From: Escherichia coli O157:H7 str. 2011EL-2287 | Lineage (GTDB): Bacteria > Pseudomonadota > Gammaproteobacteria > Enterobacterales > Enterobacteriaceae | DNA length: 64,000 nucleotides | Direction: 5' to 3' (one strand) | Assembly: GCA_000614405.2 (NCBI GenBank) | Contig: GCA_000614405.2_3612.1 | In this document: in pieces, positions 2,136 to 27,516 of the stretch | Layout of the letters: the number at the start of each line of letters is the position of its first letter | How positions within the stretch are numbered: position 1 is the first letter of the stretch | The notes under the pieces: model-generated | What the model saw: only the letters and a program-made list of their open reading frames with translations | Told to the model about the DNA's origin: nothing | Databases searched by the model: none | Position numbers and translations under genes: made by a program

Positions 2136-4565
2136 ATGAGCATGTGGTCGTTCGACTTTGAGTCATCCGGTTTGCTGGAAGACCCAGATCTTTATTATCA
2201 CTGCGGCCTGTTTAAAGAGCTGAATAAGAACCGTTTTATGCTGTTCCTTCCTCTAAATGACCGCACACACTACTCCGAGGAGGATATAGAAAAGGCTAAG
2301 AACTTCATTCTGGCAAAGAAAACTCTTTATAAAGATTTTGAAGTTCGCATAGCAGATTTTTCAGAGTTGGAAGGTTGGCTTACAGGAAATTCTGACTGGT
2401 CACCAACAGCTTTGAACTGCCATAACTGCTACAGTTATGACTTTATGCTGATGGAAAGATTATCTGGTATTCATTTTGATATGTTCCGTGATCCTAAATG
2501 TATGGGGACTATCAACGATCACCAGGTTAACCTGTTTGATACGTTGGCGATGAGCCGAATCTTGTGGCCTGATCGCCCTTTACCAAAAGGTTGTCCGGAC
2601 TCTGTATTCAACCCGGTTACTAAGAAAATGCAGCCTGTTGGTCCTCACGGCCTTATGGCATGGGGCTACGCCCTTGGTAACCAGAAAGTTCAAATTGATG
2701 ACTGGCGCGATCTTCCGTTATGGAAGTATGTGGATCGTGTATTTGAGGACGTTATCATCCAGGAGCTGCTCTGGAAAGAGCTGGTAGCGGAATCAAAAGG
2801 TGTATTCTACGGCAAATCTGACATGCAGAACTTTATGTACGATCCTGCCAAAGAGAAGCCGAAAGGGTTCAAGAAGATCACCTGGAAGAACGCATTACGT
2901 CGAGGCATGTTGCAGCACTTCCTGATGGAGCTGCAGGCCCGTCAGGGTGTATACTTCGACATAGATGGAGCTATTGCTTTACGTGACCGTTGCGATGCGT
3001 GGATGAAAGAAATCGCTGATCGTGTTGAACCACAACTGCCTTTAAAAGAGCTGTTAATGTCTCAGCGGCCCAAGTTCCCTGAAAAGCCGTTTAACCAAGA
3101 TGGGACAATCTCTAATAATGGTTGGAAATGGTTAAAAGATAAGCTTGGCTATCCTGTGGACATGAGTGCTTTAGAGTTCAAAGCCCCACCTAAGCGAGCA
3201 TTTACCTCTACAGGAGATGTCAGTAAGATGGGGATAAAATGGTGTGAAGAGATGGGCTGCAAAGACCACGATAAGATGGCTGATTTCTTGAGAGGCTATA
3301 TTAAGGGCACCTCCACACCACAACCTTTACCTAAAGAGCTGATGGATCAGGCAATAAGCGATCTGCAGCAGAAGCGAATGCCTGACTGCAAGATACCTAT
3401 GAAAATCAGCAATCAGGACGATATTAAGCGATACCTGATCAGTGCTGGTTGGCTTCCGACAATGTGGAGAACTAAGGATGTAACTAAAGACAGCAAGAAG
3501 AAAGCTTTACCTGATGCAGATGTTGATGCACGAGTATATGCATATATGGACGAGCTTTTGGAGTCAGAGTATTGTGACCTAATTATCAACTTCTGGAACA
3601 AAACTGATGCTAAGTTCCAGACAACCGTGCACAAGTTCCGAAGCTTTCCTAACTCCGAAAGGATTAAAAAGGAAGTATTCGGGAAAATACGTAGAAAAGC
3701 TAGGGCACTTATTACTTCTCCGCAACTGAAAGATACGTTTGGACACCTGTGTCCGAATCTTGAAAAATTGAACGGAGAGATGGCTAAAGATATCGTCTTA
3801 TGGTTATCATTGCGAAACCGCAGATCGGTCCTTGATCCACTCAAGGAGGATAAGGTTGACACTGGTCTTCTTAATCACCCACGCTTGAAGATTGACCATA
3901 AGCTTCCTGCTAAAAGTTCTGGGCTAACAAACACTTCCAGACAGAAACACAGTATTTGTGCAAACATGCCTAAACCATCTCCTAAAGTGGTTATGGGTAA
4001 AGAGATGCGTAGTCTATGGGGTGTTCCTCCGGGATACTTTGAGATCGGTATTGACGGGTCCAACTTAGAGCAGCTTATCGGAGCTTGGGGTGCCTTTGAG
4101 TTCGACAACGGCTTGTATTATGATGTTGTAAGTAACGGGGACGCACACCAAAACAATGCTGAGGCATATACAAAAGTAGCAGGTAGAGAGGTGTCTCGTA
4201 ACGACGGTAAACCTATCACGTATGGGGTTATGTACGGGGCACAAAAAGATAAAGTTGCAGACATGCTGGATATCTCTCCAGAGTTGGGACAAAGGGTAAT
4301 CGATGCACTCTGGGATGCCAACCCTGGTCTTAAGGGGCGCAAAGAGGATCTGGAGAAATTCTGGGAAGCAACAGGTAAGAAGTTTATCTACTCTTTTGAT
4401 GGTCATGCTATCTGGACCCGATCTAAACACTCTTTACTTAATGCATACCAACAGAATGGTGGTGCATCGCTGTGTGACTTAGTTGGGATACTCATGCACC
4501 ACCAAATGGTGAAGCGTGGGTGGTACGATGAAGGTGTTCGTCGTATTATTTATTACCATAAATAA
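2136..4565 (+). CDS. DNA polymerase, family A, exon 1 (3'-5' exonuclease domain plus polymerase motifs A and B); ORF as read stops 2 codons into an intron, true exon end about 4559
   Basis: Exo I FDFESSG; motif A IGIDGSNLEQL; motif B RNDGKPITYGVMYG; ends ...RRIIYYH exactly at the His of motif C (HDE); SD AAGGAG upstream. Confidence 0.88.
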   Translation: MSMWSFDFESSGLLEDPDLYYHCGLFKELNKNRFMLFLPLNDRTHYSEEDIEKAKNFILAKKTLYKDFEVRIADFSELEGWLTGNSDWSPTALNCHNCYSYDFMLMERLSGIHFDMFRDPKCMGTINDHQVNLFDTLAMSRILWPDRPLPKGCPDSVFNPVTKKMQPVGPHGLMAWGYALGNQKVQIDDWRDLPLWKYVDRVFEDVIIQELLWKELVAESKGVFYGKSDMQNFMYDPAKEKPKGFKKITWKNALRRGMLQHFLMELQARQGVYFDIDGAIALRDRCDAWMKEIADRVEPQLPLKELLMSQRPKFPEKPFNQDGTISNNGWKWLKDKLGYPVDMSALEFKAPPKRAFTSTGDVSKMGIKWCEEMGCKDHDKMADFLRGYIKGTSTPQPLPKELMDQAISDLQQKRMPDCKIPMKISNQDDIKRYLISAGWLPTMWRTKDVTKDSKKKALPDADVDARVYAYMDELLESEYCDLIINFWNKTDAKFQTTVHKFRSFPNSERIKKEVFGKIRRKARALITSPQLKDTFGHLCPNLEKLNGEMAKDIVLWLSLRNRRSVLDPLKEDKVDTGLLNHPRLKIDHKLPAKSSGLTNTSRQKHSICANMPKPSPKVVMGKEMRSLWGVPPGYFEIGIDGSNLEQLIGAWGAFEFDNGLYYDVVSNGDAHQNNAEAYTKVAGREVSRNDGKPITYGVMYGAQKDKVADMLDISPELGQRVIDALWDANPGLKGRKEDLEKFWEATGKKFIYSFDGHAIWTRSKHSLLNAYQQNGGASLCDLVGILMHHQMVKRGWYDEGVRRIIYYHK

Positions 4566-5238: not shown

Positions 5239-5523
5239 ATGGTAGTAGAGCCAACAAAAACATTTACATCCATGACCATTCCTGTTATTATGCAGGTGGA
5301 GTGTGTTCAGGTATCTCAAGTGTGGCCTGGCACCAAAATCCCAACAGGGCCTGATTTCTTTCAGGTTGGGAAAGTGTACAATGTCTGGAAGGCACCAGAT
5401 TGTTACCCTTTCATTAAAGATGACCGTGGGATGCTGTGGTATCTTGGAAATGACTTGACACTGCACCTTGGGAATGCTATTATTGCAGTATTCAGACTTA
5501 ACAAGAAGGAGACCGATCAATGA
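5239..5523 (+). CDS. hypothetical protein
   Basis: ORF with SD AAGAGGAG before ATG 5239. Confidence 0.5.
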   Translation: MVVEPTKTFTSMTIPVIMQVECVQVSQVWPGTKIPTGPDFFQVGKVYNVWKAPDCYPFIKDDRGMLWYLGNDLTLHLGNAIIAVFRLNKKETDQ

Positions 5524-5747
5524 CAACTTTGGTTAAAGCTACTTTTGTAGAAGAAAAGATGACAGACCTGTCCTTCTTTAAAGAAGGAAAGACCTACGAG
5601 GTTTATTACGATAAAAATCGTGCAAACAAGATGATTAAAGACGAGGAAGGGATTGCCTGGTTTATCTCCCATCTGGCAAACGGTGAGTATCATATCTACG
5701 GAACCGCCCTGCTTGCCAAGTTTGTAGCTGTTGAAGAGGGCCTATGA
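5520..5747 (+). CDS. hypothetical protein
   Basis: ORF, ATGA overlap with upstream gene. Confidence 0.5.
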   Translation: MTTLVKATFVEEKMTDLSFFKEGKTYEVYYDKNRANKMIKDEEGIAWFISHLANGEYHIYGTALLAKFVAVEEGL

Positions 5748-5938
5748 AAGTAAAGTATCTGGCTGAGGGTATGAGTAGGTATTTCACCCTTGGTGAAGAA
5801 TATTGGCCCTTTACAAGCAACGGCGATGTCTACGTGAAAGATAATTTCGGCACGCCGTGGTTTCTGCACTCTAATGGGTTGGGATATTCCATTTACTGCG
5901 GTGCAGTGAACAACACAACTCTTGCAGAGTTCGTTTAG
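5744..5938 (+). CDS. hypothetical protein
   Basis: ORF, overlapping start/stop with neighbours. Confidence 0.45.
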   Translation: MKVKYLAEGMSRYFTLGEEYWPFTSNGDVYVKDNFGTPWFLHSNGLGYSIYCGAVNNTTLAEFV

Positions 5939-5948
5939 AGGAGGTAGG

Positions 5949-6320
5949 ATGTTAGTAAAAGGTACCCACACAGTCAAACAACGTATCGAAGTTGAGATCG
6001 ATGACTGCGAGCTGAAGCATATTTTACGGTCATGTTCTAACGTTTTGCTACTCAGTATTCTCCAGGAGCGAGCGGAGAACGAGTTCTTAAATGCATTGGC
6101 AGGCCGTCCTGGTGACTTCTGCGTGCGTAAACGTGAAGGTCATAAGTCATGGTTGTGGGAAATCGATGCCGACTGGGATTACCACAAAAATGAGGGTATA
6201 GATGAGCCTATTCGTGAACTGACGGACAAAGAGATTCAGATGTACAATGAAGTTTGTCATTGGGCAACACGCCAACAAATTTACCTCGACCCTGTGTGGC
6301 TGATTGAAAATAGCCATTGA
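5949..6320 (+). CDS. hypothetical protein
   Basis: ORF with SD AGAGGAGG before ATG 5949. Confidence 0.55.
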   Translation: MLVKGTHTVKQRIEVEIDDCELKHILRSCSNVLLLSILQERAENEFLNALAGRPGDFCVRKREGHKSWLWEIDADWDYHKNEGIDEPIRELTDKEIQMYNEVCHWATRQQIYLDPVWLIENSH

Positions 6321-23373: not shown

Positions 23374-23637
23374 ATGAAACGTCTGGATCAGCTTAAACTA
23401 GTTCAGTACATGGCCTACAAAGTTCTTGAAGTCCAAAAAGGTAGCAAAAAAGAGGTTTGCGAGAAAGCTTATAAGATCTTTACCCGCAAAAAAGATGACT
23501 GGATGCTACGCCAGACCAAAAAGGCTGACATCTTGGGGTACCTGGAAGAAGAGATCCGCCTTGAAGAGCAAGAAGAGATCCGCCGCAGTGAAGCAGATTA
23601 TCAGGCAGCCTGGGAAAACTGGATGAATAACAAATAA
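23374..23637 (+). CDS. hypothetical protein
   Basis: ORF with SD AAAGAGGAAA. Confidence 0.5.
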   Translation: MKRLDQLKLVQYMAYKVLEVQKGSKKEVCEKAYKIFTRKKDDWMLRQTKKADILGYLEEEIRLEEQEEIRRSEADYQAAWENWMNNK

Positions 23638-23782
23638 TACAACAAGTTACATGGTCAGGGGGGCAATAAAGCCCCTTGATCACATAAAAATTATGCTATC
23701 CTTATTGACAAGGATCGGCAGTTTTGCTATATTCTTTTTTAAAGGGAAGTTGTAAGAAAATTAACTAAGAGGTAAAAACACC

Positions 23783-24202
23783 ATGAACATTAAATCTAAT
23801 AATCCGGCATATAGCTTTGATAACGCTTTTTGTCACGGTCCGGCGGCGAAAGGATTCGAAATCGATGGTAAACTAATTATTGTCAATGTTGACGGGGAAG
23901 AGGTTGCAGTATATCCGGTGGCAGACGTAAAAAGCCGTTTACAATGCCGCATTGATGTTACCGCCTATCAGCTTGATCCGGTCCGCATAGTTGCCCTGGT
24001 CCTGGAAGAAGAAATTAAAGCCATGCACCATAGCAACAGGTTTATTGGTGACGCTCAGGATAATATGAAGGTGTGCCGCCATAAAGTTAATGAAGTGCTT
24101 AAAGAGTACGGCTATAAAGATCTTATGATCAAACGTGATGAAAAATTCCGGTACCGTAACGACCTGGCAAATCGGATTTTTGAAATATACGAATCATTAT
24201 AA
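23783..24202 (+). CDS. hypothetical protein
   Basis: ORF with SD AAGAGG; upstream TTGACA-N17-TATATT promoter. Confidence 0.55.
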   Translation: MNIKSNNPAYSFDNAFCHGPAAKGFEIDGKLIIVNVDGEEVAVYPVADVKSRLQCRIDVTAYQLDPVRIVALVLEEEIKAMHHSNRFIGDAQDNMKVCRHKVNEVLKEYGYKDLMIKRDEKFRYRNDLANRIFEIYESL

Positions 24203-24220
24203 TTTTTTAACTGAATTATC

Positions 24221-24246
24221 AAGGGGCTTAGGCCCCTTTCTTTTTG
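24221..24246 (+). terminator. rho-independent terminator ending the plus-strand gene array
   Basis: AGGGGC-TTAG-GCCCCT hairpin followed by TTCTTTTTG. Confidence 0.7.
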
Positions 24247-25156
24247 TCTGATCTTCCCCCTACCATAAACGGCCCTACCTGGCAAGTGGAATAATTGACG
24301 AGCCATCAACCCCACACACTGTACAAATATACATGGAAAATAACTATTGCATAATTTTTCATTGTGTGGTAGCAAGTCCATTTTTACCCGTTTTCTCTCC
24401 CAAAAGTGCACGTAATGCCGCTATTGCACAAATTTTAACCTGATGCACATCTCCAATATCTTGTCAACAACTAAAAATCTTTATAAGTCATACACTTACA
24501 CAGCATCGAAAGCGTGTTCTACGCGAAAAATCGAGTATAACTATAGCCGCCAGATCTCAGAATTCACGTACGCACGCCATTCTATAGCCTGCAAAGTATT
24601 TATTCCAACCACAGAATAACGGAATAGTCAATACCTGCATAAAATAATTATTCGTGTAAACTGCATAACATAAATCAGCTCAGGTGTCAACATTTTTCGT
24701 AAACAGTCCGAAATTATCACGATGAGTTATCATAAACAGAGAAATCTTTAGTCGTCTAATGTTTACTGTACATTACTATATTGACTGGAATCATTAGATG
24801 ACTAATAGAAAGATAAGAAATAATTAACAATACAATTATTTTATCTGTAACAATAAGGCAACTATGCAAACGAATGGCATGGCGCGACGGAGTCGCGACA
24901 TAATATAAAAGCAGTAACCATCACCCCCGTGATAGTTTGTCTGCAATCTATTAATCAGATCATAGTTGCCTTGTATTTAGTTAATCATGACATAACAAGC
25001 AAGGCAACTATAGATCTGCTAATAGTTGCCCTGCTTTTATATTATGTCATAGAAACACCCGAAGGGGTGACCAAAGGTCACCTGGCATAGCCAGTGAAAT
25101 ATTGTAAACAAGTTAATTATTGTCATGCAAACGAATGGCATGGCTTATCATCTCTG

Positions 25157-25350
25157 TGTAAACAGTTTGTTTGTAAACAGTTTATACGTGAACAGTTAAC
25201 TATGTAAACTATTGAGAATGTAAACAGTAAAGGAAGTGAATAGTAAGCGAGTGAATATTAATAGCGTGAATAGTGACAGCGTAAACAGTCAGGCATGTCA
25301 ATTAAGTCTAAAGTGTCAAAGGTGTCATATTATGTCACCATTATGTCAGA
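25157..25350. repeat. array of short degenerate tandem direct repeats (GTAAACAGT / GTGAATAGT units, then TGTCA units)
   Basis: About 9 units of GT(A/G)AA(C/T)AGT at 12-17 bp spacing, then about 6 TGTCA repeats; no coding potential. Confidence 0.6.
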
Positions 25351-25609
25351 CAAGTTTTTCTCCTCTTTGTCAAGTGCTGCATGAAAATTTACAATCTGGT
25401 ATGGTAGCATTTTTGCGGCCCTGTTTACATTCAGTTGTGTATGTATAAGCCTTGTTGTGTGGGCGTTTAGACGTCTAGACGGTTGGAAGTCTACAGGTCA
25501 ATATCTAATCTATTGGTTGCTAACTATATCCCACACAAATAGTAAGAAATATAATTGTTATGTGTGTAAACTGTAACTCATGTTATCAATCCCTGTATGG
25601 ATCGCCAGT

Positions 25610-25637
25610 GGTGCGCATAATGGGTATTATGTTAAAT
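25610..25637 (+). other. dif: dif-like XerC/XerD site-specific recombination site
   Basis: GGTGCGCATAA-TGGGTA-TTATGTTAAAT: both 11-bp arms identical to E. coli dif as recalled, 2 differences in the 6-bp central region. Confidence 0.7.
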
Positions 25638-26765
25638 TGCCCGTAATGATAACAGTTCTCACAATGATAGGTATTCTCATTCACCCCACAAGATAGGTTG
25701 CAAATGTTGTGCCACTGTGTGAACGGCCTCACCTATTAATTTGCCTCACTGCCTCGATATTTGAGAATTATTATAAGAATGAGAAGTATTCCCATTCCGT
25801 CCGCCTGGCAGCACTCCTGTCGGTCAGGTCAAAATCGTGGTAGAATTGGGCCTATTCAGATATTTCTGGCTGACTCTTCAGGTCTGTGTGGGAAAAGCCA
25901 ACCTCTCCGGCGGGGCAGGGGGAGGTCAATTAAAAAATTTACGTGGTGTATGAAGCGCTCTTCAGGTAAGGCAGGTATTATGGGATGAAACCCTCTTCAG
26001 GCAATGATATTTGTGGGTGTGATATTTGCTGGAAAGCCAGATATGACGGGACTCCCGGCGGGGCAGGGGTAGTACAGACAGGGAAAATATGGGGATGTAG
26101 TTGGGTGAATTGATCGGGCAGGTAGAGTATGGAATATGTTACAAGTATGTTAAATATGGAGGTTGAATATCTGTAGGATTTGTGTGTAAAATCAAAGACT
26201 TAAGGGGTGTTGTGGTATTTTCTATAAATAATTCAAGTTTAATAGGCAATATTTGTCTCTATCCGCTTTGTGTGGTAAACAGATTCAGATTAGATTGGTT
26301 TACAAGTGTATACATAATATACAAATTAAAGATACAAGAAACCCCCCTCCCCCCTTCGGCTACCATTCACCTTTTCCTCTGACTGGTACTTAAACACTTA
26401 TTCAGACTCTTCAGGTTATCACCCATATATCATATGGCAGTGACTGGTGTCCTCCGGCCCCTCTTTCGTCACCCGTCCGCTTCGCCATGCTAATGCCATA
26501 GCTAATGGTTCGGTTGTTCACCCTGTTCACTCAGGTGTATCTCTATACCCCTTCAAACCGAAGAGAACAGAAAACCCGAATTACTCGGTAAAAGAAAAGA
26601 GAAGAACTTAATTTTATCAGGATAGGCAAGAATGTCAAGGCATGACTGCTCACTAAACAAGCAAACAGTCATGTGTGGGAGGTAAGTGATTGTGGTGGTA
26701 GGAAATTTAGTTGAAAGATGTGTTATAGGTGCTTCCAGCACTTTAGCCGGGCAGCTAATTGTGTG

Positions 26766-26981
26766 TCAGTCCAGCGGTTCATCCTCTACTTCACTGAAAT
26801 CAATGTTCATGGTCTCTTCCCAACCATCGATCTCAGCACAAGAGTGGAGTTCTTTAGGGTTTACTCCCAAAGCCTCAGCAACAGAGTCTATATTTAACAC
26901 CTCTGGCAGGTATGATTCATCGAATTCAAGGTAAATCAGGCCACGAGTGTTGTCAGCTCCACCAAATATTTCTATCTTCAT
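26766..26981 (-). CDS. hypothetical acidic protein
   Basis: ORF; last gene of the minus-strand transcription unit. Confidence 0.5.
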   Translation of the reverse strand: MKIEIFGGADNTRGLIYLEFDESYLPEVLNIDSVAEALGVNPKELHSCAEIDGWEETMNIDFSEVEDEPLD

Positions 26982-27102
26982 AAAATCTCCTCTGGGAATG
27001 AAAGTGTGAACAGGGTTTTATACGTTCTAATGCACAGGAATTATACACGTTTGCCTCTTCAGGCCATGCTTTAGCATGAGGAACCTGTGTGGGCTCGGTG
27101 CT

Positions 27103-27516
27103 TCATAGTCTACCACCTCTGAACTCTTCGTGCTCAGGCATAATAGAGAACCAGATATCTACGATGTCCTCCCACGTCAGGTCATCAGCCTCAGGATCTG
27201 TCTGGGACGAAGATGAAGAGTCCTCAGAATCTAAGTTTTCCTCTTTAACTGGCTCATCCAAGGGACATATGGTCACTCCTTCGGATGTCTCTTCAGATGC
27301 ATGTGTGTTGATCATGTTCCACCCGTGAGTATTCCGGCAACAGCCGCTATGGAAGTAATGATCATCAGGATCACCACTAAAACTTCGGACAATGTTCTCA
27401 TTGTGTATTCCATATTCTCCAAATGATGTGTGGATATTATCACTGGAGCGGCAATGTGTCAACAGAAACGCCGCGAGGGTTTGGTTAAAATCCGAGCGTA
27501 TGGTGATTTGGGTCAA
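27103..27516 (-). CDS. hypothetical acidic protein (start uncertain; internal ATG at 27315 has better SD)
   Basis: ORF; Ser/Asp/Glu-rich. Confidence 0.4.
   Translation of the reverse strand: MTQITIRSDFNQTLAAFLLTHCRSSDNIHTSFGEYGIHNENIVRSFSGDPDDHYFHSGCCRNTHGWNMINTHASEETSEGVTICPLDEPVKEENLDSEDSSSSSQTDPEADDLTWEDIVDIWFSIMPEHEEFRGGRL

Follow-up and report, generated by a model that had tools for sequence, protein, structure and literature searches.

The 64-kb window (the whole stretch of DNA that was analysed, 64,000 nucleotides) is DNA of a lytic Vequintavirus, i.e. an rV5-like myovirus of 136-138 kb, and not of a plasmid. For the region under study, matches were obtained to 121 phage records, with identities of 80-99% (at least 90% for 117 of them); all are Vequintavirus, including rV5, Murica, FV3, FFH2, and others. 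Nineteen of the matching records are titled 'Campylobacter phage'; the one of these that was opened, C15, is marked UNVERIFIED and is classified as a Vequintavirus. The repeat array that is our subject is located in a gene-free stretch, ~1.6 kb long in the window and 2.6 kb by the annotation of rV5, toward which blocks of small genes without assigned function are transcribed convergently from both sides, and it lies at an inflection of GC skew. The stretch contains, in order, a conserved 20-mer, nine GTRAAYAGT units, five TGTCA units, and a sequence homologous to the direct terminal repeat (DTR) of vequintaviruses, within which are a promoter-like element and a dif-like site. Uncommented 'repeat_region' features are present in or near this non-coding region in the GenBank records isim and navn; a description of the array was not found in the searchable literature.

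The ten open reading frames flanking the array yield no Pfam match above the family cut-off and fall into PHROGs of unknown function, with the exception of one transcriptional regulator 3 kb away. The adjacent gene (23783-24202), considered as a possible source of the binding protein, encodes a protein of 139 residues with homologues in vequintaviruses only, for which an AlphaFold model was mediocre (pLDDT 69, pTM 0.49) and gave nothing at E <0.1 in a Foldseek search of the PDB. An 87-residue neighbour (23374-23637), labelled 'DNA translocase FtsK' in the GenBank records isim and APCEc02, was considered as a translocase for the dif-like site; it has no Pfam FtsK_gamma match and belongs to a PHROG without function, and the label is taken to be spurious. 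With respect to packaging genes, a small terminase, which the original prediction had proposed to look for, is not annotated beside the rV5 large terminase, TerL gp065, where spanin genes are located instead. The rV5 gp075, a winged-helix 'replication initiation protein' of 116 residues, is encoded ~40 kb from the array.

A role in plasmid maintenance had been favoured on first inspection of the DNA, with ParA/ParB genes as the partners to be sought. No ParA, ParB, ParR, or Rep match was found in the ten flanking reading frames (Pfam above the family cut-off, and PHROGs), the terms ParB, partition, lysogeny, and integrase are absent from the text of the rV5 genome paper, and a search of 5,426 complete E. 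coli genomes gave no match to the array segment; in a lytic Vequintavirus, the plasmid proposal is thus not supported. The unidirectional short repeats are of a kind that might be expected of a partition centromere (parS/parC/sopC-like), acting in a plasmid or pseudolysogenic state, and there is one match among the plasmids of PLSDB, although this sole match (CP057073.1, 137.5 kb, 95.6% identity) is as large as a whole vequintavirus genome. We nevertheless regard a centromere as extremely improbable, given that no partition genes were found among the ten flanking reading frames, no partition functions in the rV5 paper, and no matches in the E. coli genomes, the absence of the array from phage navn and of a canonical chain of units from phage V18 (see below), and that it leaves unexplained the coincidence of the array with the DTR boundary.

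Two sets of short direct repeats

The first set comprises nine GTRAAYAGT units (25158-25289, + strand) in a single orientation, with a period of 15-16 bp. Their GT[AG]AA[CT] cores, all on the + strand, start at 25158, 25173, 25188, 25204, 25220, 25236, 25251, 25266, and 25281, i.e. with start-to-start spacings of 15, 15, 16, 16, 16, 15, 15, and 15 bp. The full motif, GT[AG]AA[CT]AGT, is exact in seven of the nine units and occurs nine times in all on the two strands of the window, one occurrence being at 24699, 460 bp upstream of the array. Against a baseline of 200 first-order Markov sequences, each of 64 kb, the densest 135-nt cluster of GT[AG]AA[CT] holds nine copies, compared with a random mean of 2.8 and a maximum of 4; two period-15 arrays are called in the region by Tandem Repeats Finder.

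The second set comprises five TGTCA units (25296-25348, + strand), starting at 25296, 25314, 25323, 25333, and 25344, with spacings of 18, 9, 10, and 11 bp, the last of which ends at the boundary of the terminal repeat. Five units in 55 nt compare with a mean of 2.25 and a maximum of 4 in the same Markov baseline. Both clusters thus exceed those in any of the random 64-kb sequences, and the array of nine GTRAAYAGT units plus TGTCA units is real, as originally predicted. Some details require amendment. About six TGTCA units had been counted, of which five are within the interval given and the sixth, at 25368, is beyond its end and inside the DTR. The suggestion of roughly helical periodicity is correct for the TGTCA units (9-11 bp), but not for the GTRAAYAGT units, because a period of 15-16 bp corresponds to ~1.5 helical turns.

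Conservation within the first set is concentrated in the motif. The 9-nt core has a mean pairwise identity of 0.81 across the nine units, with five invariant positions, whereas the spacers have an identity of 0.30, compared with a random expectation of 0.29, though some spacer letters are common to the neighbouring units 6-8. The difference between core and spacer is the signature of selected binding sites, and not that of a recently duplicated neutral satellite. To the left, the array is bordered by the conserved 20-mer ATGCAAACGAATGGCATGGC (25125-25144, + strand), which has an exact second copy at 24864-24883. This 20-mer, which served as the left anchor in comparisons between phages, was found at every locus compared (in V18, the first copy only) and forms the fixed left border of what is a variable array.

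There is no sign that the array is coding or acts as a structured RNA. No Rfam match was obtained in 23500-27500 at E values up to 1, and the possibility of an RNA or hairpin element was rejected, since the array folds without single-strand structure (z = +0.9). The differences in array length between phages come in unit steps of 15-16 nt and do not preserve a reading frame. The absence of a fold and of an Rfam match, together with these frame-breaking steps, indicates that the array is an element of duplex DNA. A likeness to Tus/Ter, OmpR, or ArgR sites, weighed by eye, was set aside, their spacing or core being unsuited, and Chi and matS sites are absent near the array.

The edge of the terminal repeat

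The TGTCA units are followed immediately by the DTR-homologous sequence (25349-25805), which is present as a single copy in the window; the vequintavirus DTR is 457-460 bp in length. The DTR of Gotham (1-459 of its record) maps to 25349-25805 with 95% identity, and the GenBank records for Gotham, Pr121LW, and ECP2303 all start at GACAAGTTTTTCTCC, which is position 25349 of the window. The DTR of LL12 (104,966-105,424), which is PhageTerm-derived, has both boundaries at the same places as that of Gotham, i.e. 25348/25349 and 25805/25806. Since the boundaries of Gotham and LL12 coincide, the array and the DTR abut with no nucleotide between them, and the junction reads ...ATTATGTCA^GACAAG..., the caret marking the boundary. 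By homology with these two phages, the virion termini of the window phage would be located at the edges of its DTR.

Independent read-based analyses of Gotham, LL12, and EdH4/HdK5 have given a non-permuted DTR of 458-459 bp, including the 458-bp redundancies reported for the vequintaviruses EdH4/HdK5 by Korf et al.; for KPP-1, of the sister genus Mydovirus, the published DTR is 514 bp. Circular permutation has been claimed for vequintaviruses in some announcements, contrary to the DTR reports. Several GenBank records break within the segment used as the query, and an exact-match scan of IMG/VR for the DTR start returned one contig only.

The predicted cut site, TGTCA^GACAAG (25344-25354, + strand; cut between 25348 and 25349), is a near-palindrome, TGTC-A-GACA. 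The other boundary, when read from outside to inside, is TGCCA^GGCGGAC (25799-25810, - strand), an inverted and imperfect copy of the left motif; this sequence is shared by 14 of the 15 vequintavirus loci compared, the exception being rV5, with TGCCT. Read in this direction, both vequintavirus boundaries conform to TG(T/C)CA^G(A/G)C; those of KPP-1 are TGCTA^AACAC and TGCTA^GACGG, i.e. with TGCTA^ at both. As the boundary motifs match when read inward, the DTR has a short cut motif at each end, in inverted orientation. To judge from the sequence, the units of the TGTCA array repeat the outer half of this putative cut motif in the same orientation. A TGTCA adjoins the DTR start in all 16 loci for which the upstream flank is available, and likewise in LL12, C15, and an IMG/VR contig (L072). 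The coincidence with the DTR edge, and the location of the last TGTCA in the predicted cut site, bear on the alternatives offered at the outset, i.e. a centromere, Rep-binding iterons, or a site for terminase: the last of these has gained in support, whereas a centromere and an origin are poorly supported.

A candidate sigma-70-like promoter, TTGTCA-17-TACAAT (25367-25395, + strand), is the best match in the region (10 of the 12 consensus positions). It is predicted to start 19 nt inside the DTR and to read inward, and its -35 hexamer includes the sixth TGTCA; by our own reading, on the basis of consensus matching, the DTR edge of KPP-1 has a comparable promoter-like element (TTGTCA, ~18 nt, TACAAA). 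Pho boxes are TGTCA-type direct repeats of 7 bp with an 11-bp period, which overlap the -35 region ~10 bp upstream of the -10 element. It may be asked whether the array consists of sites for a transcription factor, either of the phage or of the host PhoB/OmpR type, which act on this promoter once the genome ends are joined. The TGTCA repeats are ~20-70 bp upstream of the -35 hexamer TTGTCA, and an exact TGTCA-N6-TGTCA, the sole one in the window, is located at 25333. However, the spacing of the TGTCA units, which is 8-11 bp within and between phages, and their degeneracy in C15 would seem ill-suited to PhoB, and a distance of 24 bp puts the last unit out of phase with the -35-like TTGTCA. Further, the genes downstream of the promoter are on the minus strand, with no convincing one on the + strand, and a regulatory role would not account for the array ending exactly at the cut site, such that regulation of this promoter is, in our view, distinctly unlikely.

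The dif-like core (25610-25637) is inside the DTR and is conserved in 18 of 18 loci; both of its 11-bp arms are, we take it, identical to those of E. coli dif. A dif-like site is also present in KPP-1 and in IMG/VR contigs of 93-149 kb. This site, the proximity of which had been cited in favour of a plasmid, is thus real and conserved, but, being within the terminal repeat of a virulent phage, it provides no argument for a plasmid. Its presence in the DTR, maintained across the subfamily, is more surprising than the array itself; no published account of a dif site in the terminal repeat of a lytic phage was found in a literature search.

The conservation of the dif-like core raises the question of whether the array provides accessory or architectural DNA for XerCD recombination there, in the manner of cer/psi. 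The accessory sequences of cer/psi are ~180 bp in length and directly adjoin the XerC arm. By contrast, 262 bp separate the end of the array from the XerC-type arm (25610), with the terminal cut site between them, some genera retain the dif-like site without the array, and no ArgR- or ArcA-like boxes were recognised by eye; we consider an accessory role highly improbable. A broader possibility, which is also very unlikely, is that the array and the dif-bearing DTR constitute a single module by which a virulent phage uses the chromosome-terminus machinery of its host. Were this so, XerCD might recombine the two terminal dif-like sites, so circularising the linear genome after its injection or resolving replication products, and the array might be an architectural or directionality element, or a polar barrier, instead of or in addition to being a site for terminase recognition.

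Variation among relatives

Among 14 genomes, the DTR is conserved at 92-99%, whereas the array segment (25049-25348) has identities of 0.32-0.76, with many gaps, and the conservation profile of these genomes steps from 0.63 to 0.99 exactly at 25348/25349. The non-coding flanks (24629-25048 and 25349-26128) are at 0.89-1.00, except for two 30-nt bins at 0.81 and 0.88, so that the array segment is the sole hypervariable part of a 1.5-kb non-coding region. The number of GTRAAYAGT units ranges from none to ~10 among phages that are otherwise 90-99% identical: there are none in navn, two in MaxTheCat and FFH2, three in LL12, nine in the window and in rV5, and ~10 in JES2013. In V18, the whole segment after the first 20-mer is missing and there is no canonical 15-16-bp chain. 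Given such instability of copy number, and the absence of units from navn, the GTRAAYAGT sub-array is probably dispensable. The spacing of these units is, by contrast, well preserved, with 72 of the 78 neighbour spacings in 19 vequintavirus loci being 15 or 16 bp and the rest 30 or 32 bp.

The TGTCA units number from one to seven per phage; 28 of the 48 spacings in vequintavirus loci are 8-11 bp and nine are 18-20 bp. In C15, the inner units are degenerate (TGTGT/TGTTG/TGTTT), yet the 9-11-bp phase is kept.

The array is a single-copy feature. One such cluster is present in the complete 135-kb genome of C15, in which TGTCAGACAAG is found once, and no further cluster was found in rV5 30-69 kb or elsewhere in the 64-kb window. 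A scan of the window to the right of 25805 revealed no GTRAAY or TGTCA/TGCCA cluster, the flank on that side bearing other repeats (CTCTTCAGG, three copies, and CCGGCGGGGCAGGGG, two copies). In other Vequintavirinae (KPP-1 and the IMG/VR contigs of 93-149 kb), a homologous DTR with its boundary motif and dif-like site is present, but a comparable array is not; at most, there is one extra TGCTC ~20 bp from the cut. Since these sister genera retain the DTR and boundary motif without the array, the array is a genus-specific elaboration.

Such hypervariability, in the form of repeats that number from none to ~10, are lost in V18, and are absent from other genera, is what might be expected of a functionless minisatellite, prone to slippage or unequal crossover, beside a recombinogenic genome end; the spacer letters shared by units 6-8 are also suggestive of recent duplication. 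Neutral decay, however, should affect cores and spacers alike, contrary to the difference in their conservation, and it does not lead one to expect that orientation would be uniform and a period of 15-16 bp kept over 19 phages, or that a TGTCA would be found beside the cut site in every genome compared. A minisatellite without function is, therefore, unlikely.

A further alternative is that the array is a replication origin of the iteron type, at which a phage initiator bound to GTRAAYAGT iterons would open nearby DNA. The layout is iteron-like and occurs once per genome, the array is at the inflection of GC skew, and rV5 has an annotated initiator in gp075. The authors of the rV5 genome paper, who did not describe the repeats, examined a skew change at the equivalent position as a possible origin and ascribed it to the switch in the direction of transcription. 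There is, moreover, no AT-rich unwinding element within ~300 bp of the array, the closest stretch in which 40-nt windows reach 80% AT being at 24790-24859; no DnaA box is present in 24400-26180, the nearest being at 26183 (minus strand), and a single IHF match was found, at 26190, with none beside the array. No rep gene is adjacent, gp075 being ~40 kb distant, and neither the variation in the number of the supposed iterons, down to zero in navn and no canonical chain in V18, nor the existence of sister genera having a homologous DTR without the array, is readily reconciled with an origin, to which we assign little probability.

A possible role in end recognition and likeness to known systems

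To our knowledge, the formation of vequintavirus genome ends is undescribed, and we know of no small terminase in these phages. The explanation that we prefer is that the array is a predicted protein-binding site at the DTR edge, through which ends would be recognised and concatemers processed in the course of packaging, a proposal that we consider to have about an even chance of being correct. Its two parts merit different degrees of confidence. Recognition of the cut site is a probable role for the TGTCA units, whereas for the GTRAAYAGT units a role accessory to this recognition is tentative, and we lean slightly against it.

The proposal can be set out as a scheme of putative protein binding, with a candidate binder, a supposed polarity of nicking, and a supposed role in packaging. 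A phage protein, perhaps the large terminase or a recognition factor akin to a small terminase, would bind to the TGTCA repeats in replicating (concatemeric or circular) DNA; being approximately one helical turn apart, the repeats would present the same face of the DNA. A nuclease positioned by the bound protein would cut after the last unit (TGTCA^GAC), with a second cut, in the opposite strand, at the inverted motif TGCCA^GGC, which lies on that strand at a distance of 459 bp. The two cuts being staggered, the intervening 459 bp could then be copied by fill-in or strand displacement, which would generate the DTR at both packaged ends, as in Watson/T7-type models for the formation of terminal-repeat ends. 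The nine outer GTRAAYAGT units may form an accessory array onto which this protein, or a second one, is loaded; their cores would be under selection, but the units would be free to drift in number without loss of viability. A passage of one report on T3/T7 (PMC3276506, citing Yamagishi 1985) places the determinants of packaging specificity within 5% of the genome termini. The weak points of the proposed packaging role are that neither the annotation beside rV5 TerL nor the genes flanking the array offer a convincing binder, that the array is one-sided and of unstable copy number, that no array is present in sister genera, and that permutation has been reported.

Phage cocktails for therapy or biocontrol directed at E. 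coli commonly include vequintaviruses. The junction TGTCA^GACAAG, the inverted motif that lies 459 bp from it, and the one-sided phased array are targets with which a recognition protein might be found, and could also be of use in the engineering of packaging signals. The range from none to ~10 units among near-identical phages amounts to a natural deletion series, relevant to the role of terminus-flanking arrays. For those annotating such genomes, the region is to be viewed as a genome terminus and not as a plasmid-like locus.

The arrays with which the present one may best be compared are SRL and SRR of phage T7, short-repeat arrays reportedly described by Dunn and Studier in 1983 as lying beside the 160-bp terminal repetition. 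In the T7 sequence, ~12 CCTAAAG-type units are present at a spacing of 12-13 bp from 175 to 338, starting 15 bp past the 160-bp terminal repeat, together with a looser set of approximately six units 38-172 bp before the right-end copy of the repeat, and isolated copies inside the repeat. Both phages are lytic, with a short, non-permuted direct terminal repeat (here by homology), and both have a unidirectional core of 7-9 bp, CCTAAAG in T7 and GTRAAYAGT here. In each case, the arrays start in unique, non-coding DNA within a few bp of the repeat, and isolated copies of the motif occur inside the repeat. There are, however, differences. The two have no sequence similarity, T7 is a podovirus and the window phage a myovirus, and the period of the left T7 array is 12-13 bp compared with 15-16 bp; T7 has arrays on both inner sides, whereas here there is one on one side only; and the second, helically phased motif, TGTCA, doubling as the outer half of the predicted cut site, and the highly variable copy number are peculiar to the present array in this comparison. 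So far as we are aware, a function has yet to be firmly assigned to the T7 arrays.

Sites of the pac and cos types provide a second point of comparison. In P1 pac, TGATCA/G hexamers flank the cut, lambda cosB has R sites for gpNu1, and SPP1 has pacL and pacR. The likeness is in the reiteration of short motifs right beside a terminase cut, at a cis-acting site that is unique in the genome, and in a helical phasing that would be suited to cooperative binding. By contrast with the present case, the ends of P1, lambda, and SPP1 are cohesive or headful-permuted and are not exact direct terminal repeats, and the binding proteins, PacA, gpNu1, and G1P, respectively, are known, whereas the binder here is putative; as with T7, the sequences are not similar.

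Plasmid centromeres and origins (R1 parC, F sopC, P1 parS, and the RepA/pi iterons) also have short direct repeats, all in one direction, in which the cores are conserved and the spacers vary freely. In the present case, however, there are no ParA/B, ParM/R, or Rep genes nearby and no DUE or DnaA boxes, and the repeats are in a virulent phage, with unstable copy number and a position that is locked to the genome terminus. Overall, to judge by its anatomy, the array resembles T7 SRL/SRR and the pac/cosB sites in the way it would work, but it is homologous to none of them; it differs from them in that it is one-sided, combines two motifs with different phasing, and is hypervariable in copy number.

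A dif-like site within the terminal repeat

The direct terminal repeat (DTR) segment, located at 25349-25805, contains a dif-like site, GGTGCGCATAATGGGTATTATGTTAAAT, at 25610-25637, i.e. at an offset of ~263 within the repeat. Both 11-bp arms of this site are identical to those of E. coli dif (GGTGCGCATAA-TGTATA-TTATGTTAAAT), the 6-bp centre being the sole difference between the two. The site is retained at a constant DTR offset in all 18 of the vequintavirus loci compared, with a centre of either TGGGTA or TAGGTA, and is also present in IMG/VR contigs of 93-149 kb that have homologous DTR edges, as well as in the DTR of the Klebsiella phage KPP-1. It is the sole site of its kind in the complete genome of the vequintavirus C15. 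A linear genome with two copies might be circularised by XerCD. A literature search found no paper on a dif-like site in terminal repeats of such phages.

Two further IMG/VR contigs, L026 (154,976 bp) and L050 (261,806 bp), each have two dif-like sites in inverted orientation, standing amid tandem DnaA-box-like repeats (TGTGGATAA). These contigs are apparently unrelated to the Vequintavirus of the window; they may derive from jumbo phages, from phage-plasmids or from pieces of a chromosome.

Right-flank repeats and the FtsK annotation

The right flank of the DTR (25859-26130) has repeats of its own, including two copies of CCGGCGGGGCAGGGG located 148 bp apart (at 25907 and 26055) and three of CTCTTCAGG (near 25876, 25958 and 25993). 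Both copies of CCGGCGGGGCAGGGG contain GGGCAGGG, which fits the consensus for FtsK-orienting KOPS motifs, GGGNAGGG; across the C15 genome, KOPS displayed no obvious polarity. In the records of phages isim and APCEc02, the homologues of an 87-residue + strand ORF at 23374-23637 are named 'DNA translocase FtsK'. Pfam gives no FtsK or FtsK_gamma hit for this ORF, which falls in a PHROG of unknown function, and the name appears to be an error of annotation.

Database records matching the terminus

A PLSDB record, CP057073.1 (137,565 bp), has 95.6% identity to the query, with the match at 5363-6101. It was deposited as an E. coli plasmid, with pooled cattle faeces as the source, and is of vequintavirus-genome size; it represents either a co-assembled phage or a sign of a carrier state. 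In the phage collection search, 19 'Campylobacter phage' records match the terminus region with vequintavirus-level identity. The one inspected, C15 (MG065654), is flagged UNVERIFIED and is classified as Vequintavirus FFH2; it is doubtful that Campylobacter is the host for these records.

Conserved non-coding DNA around the terminus

The regions at 24629-25048 and 25806-26128 are without a convincing ORF, as part of ~1.5 kb of such DNA, the conservation of which at least equals that of the coding genome (identity 0.81-1.00 in 30-nt bins). Such conservation suggests that the terminus is surrounded by a number of additional cis elements or small RNAs; a search of Rfam with these regions gave no matches. 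To the left of the repeat array, the segment at 24840-25095, which is 89-98% conserved across phages, folds as a long imperfect, highly stable hairpin (-96.9 kcal/mol, z = -9.9), built from an 18-bp perfect inverted repeat (24897-24914/25031-25048) together with AAGGCAACTAT, which is present four times, its orientation alternating from copy to copy. It is followed at 25057-25090 by a pair of small GC hairpins, at about the position where, by coordinate offset, the Murica phage record has an annotated terminator (locus 4401-4436).

The best sigma-70-like promoter match in the region, at 25367-25395, is located 19 nt inside the DTR and points inward; no clear + strand gene was found downstream of it. 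As read by eye, a comparable promoter-like element is present at the DTR edge of KPP-1.
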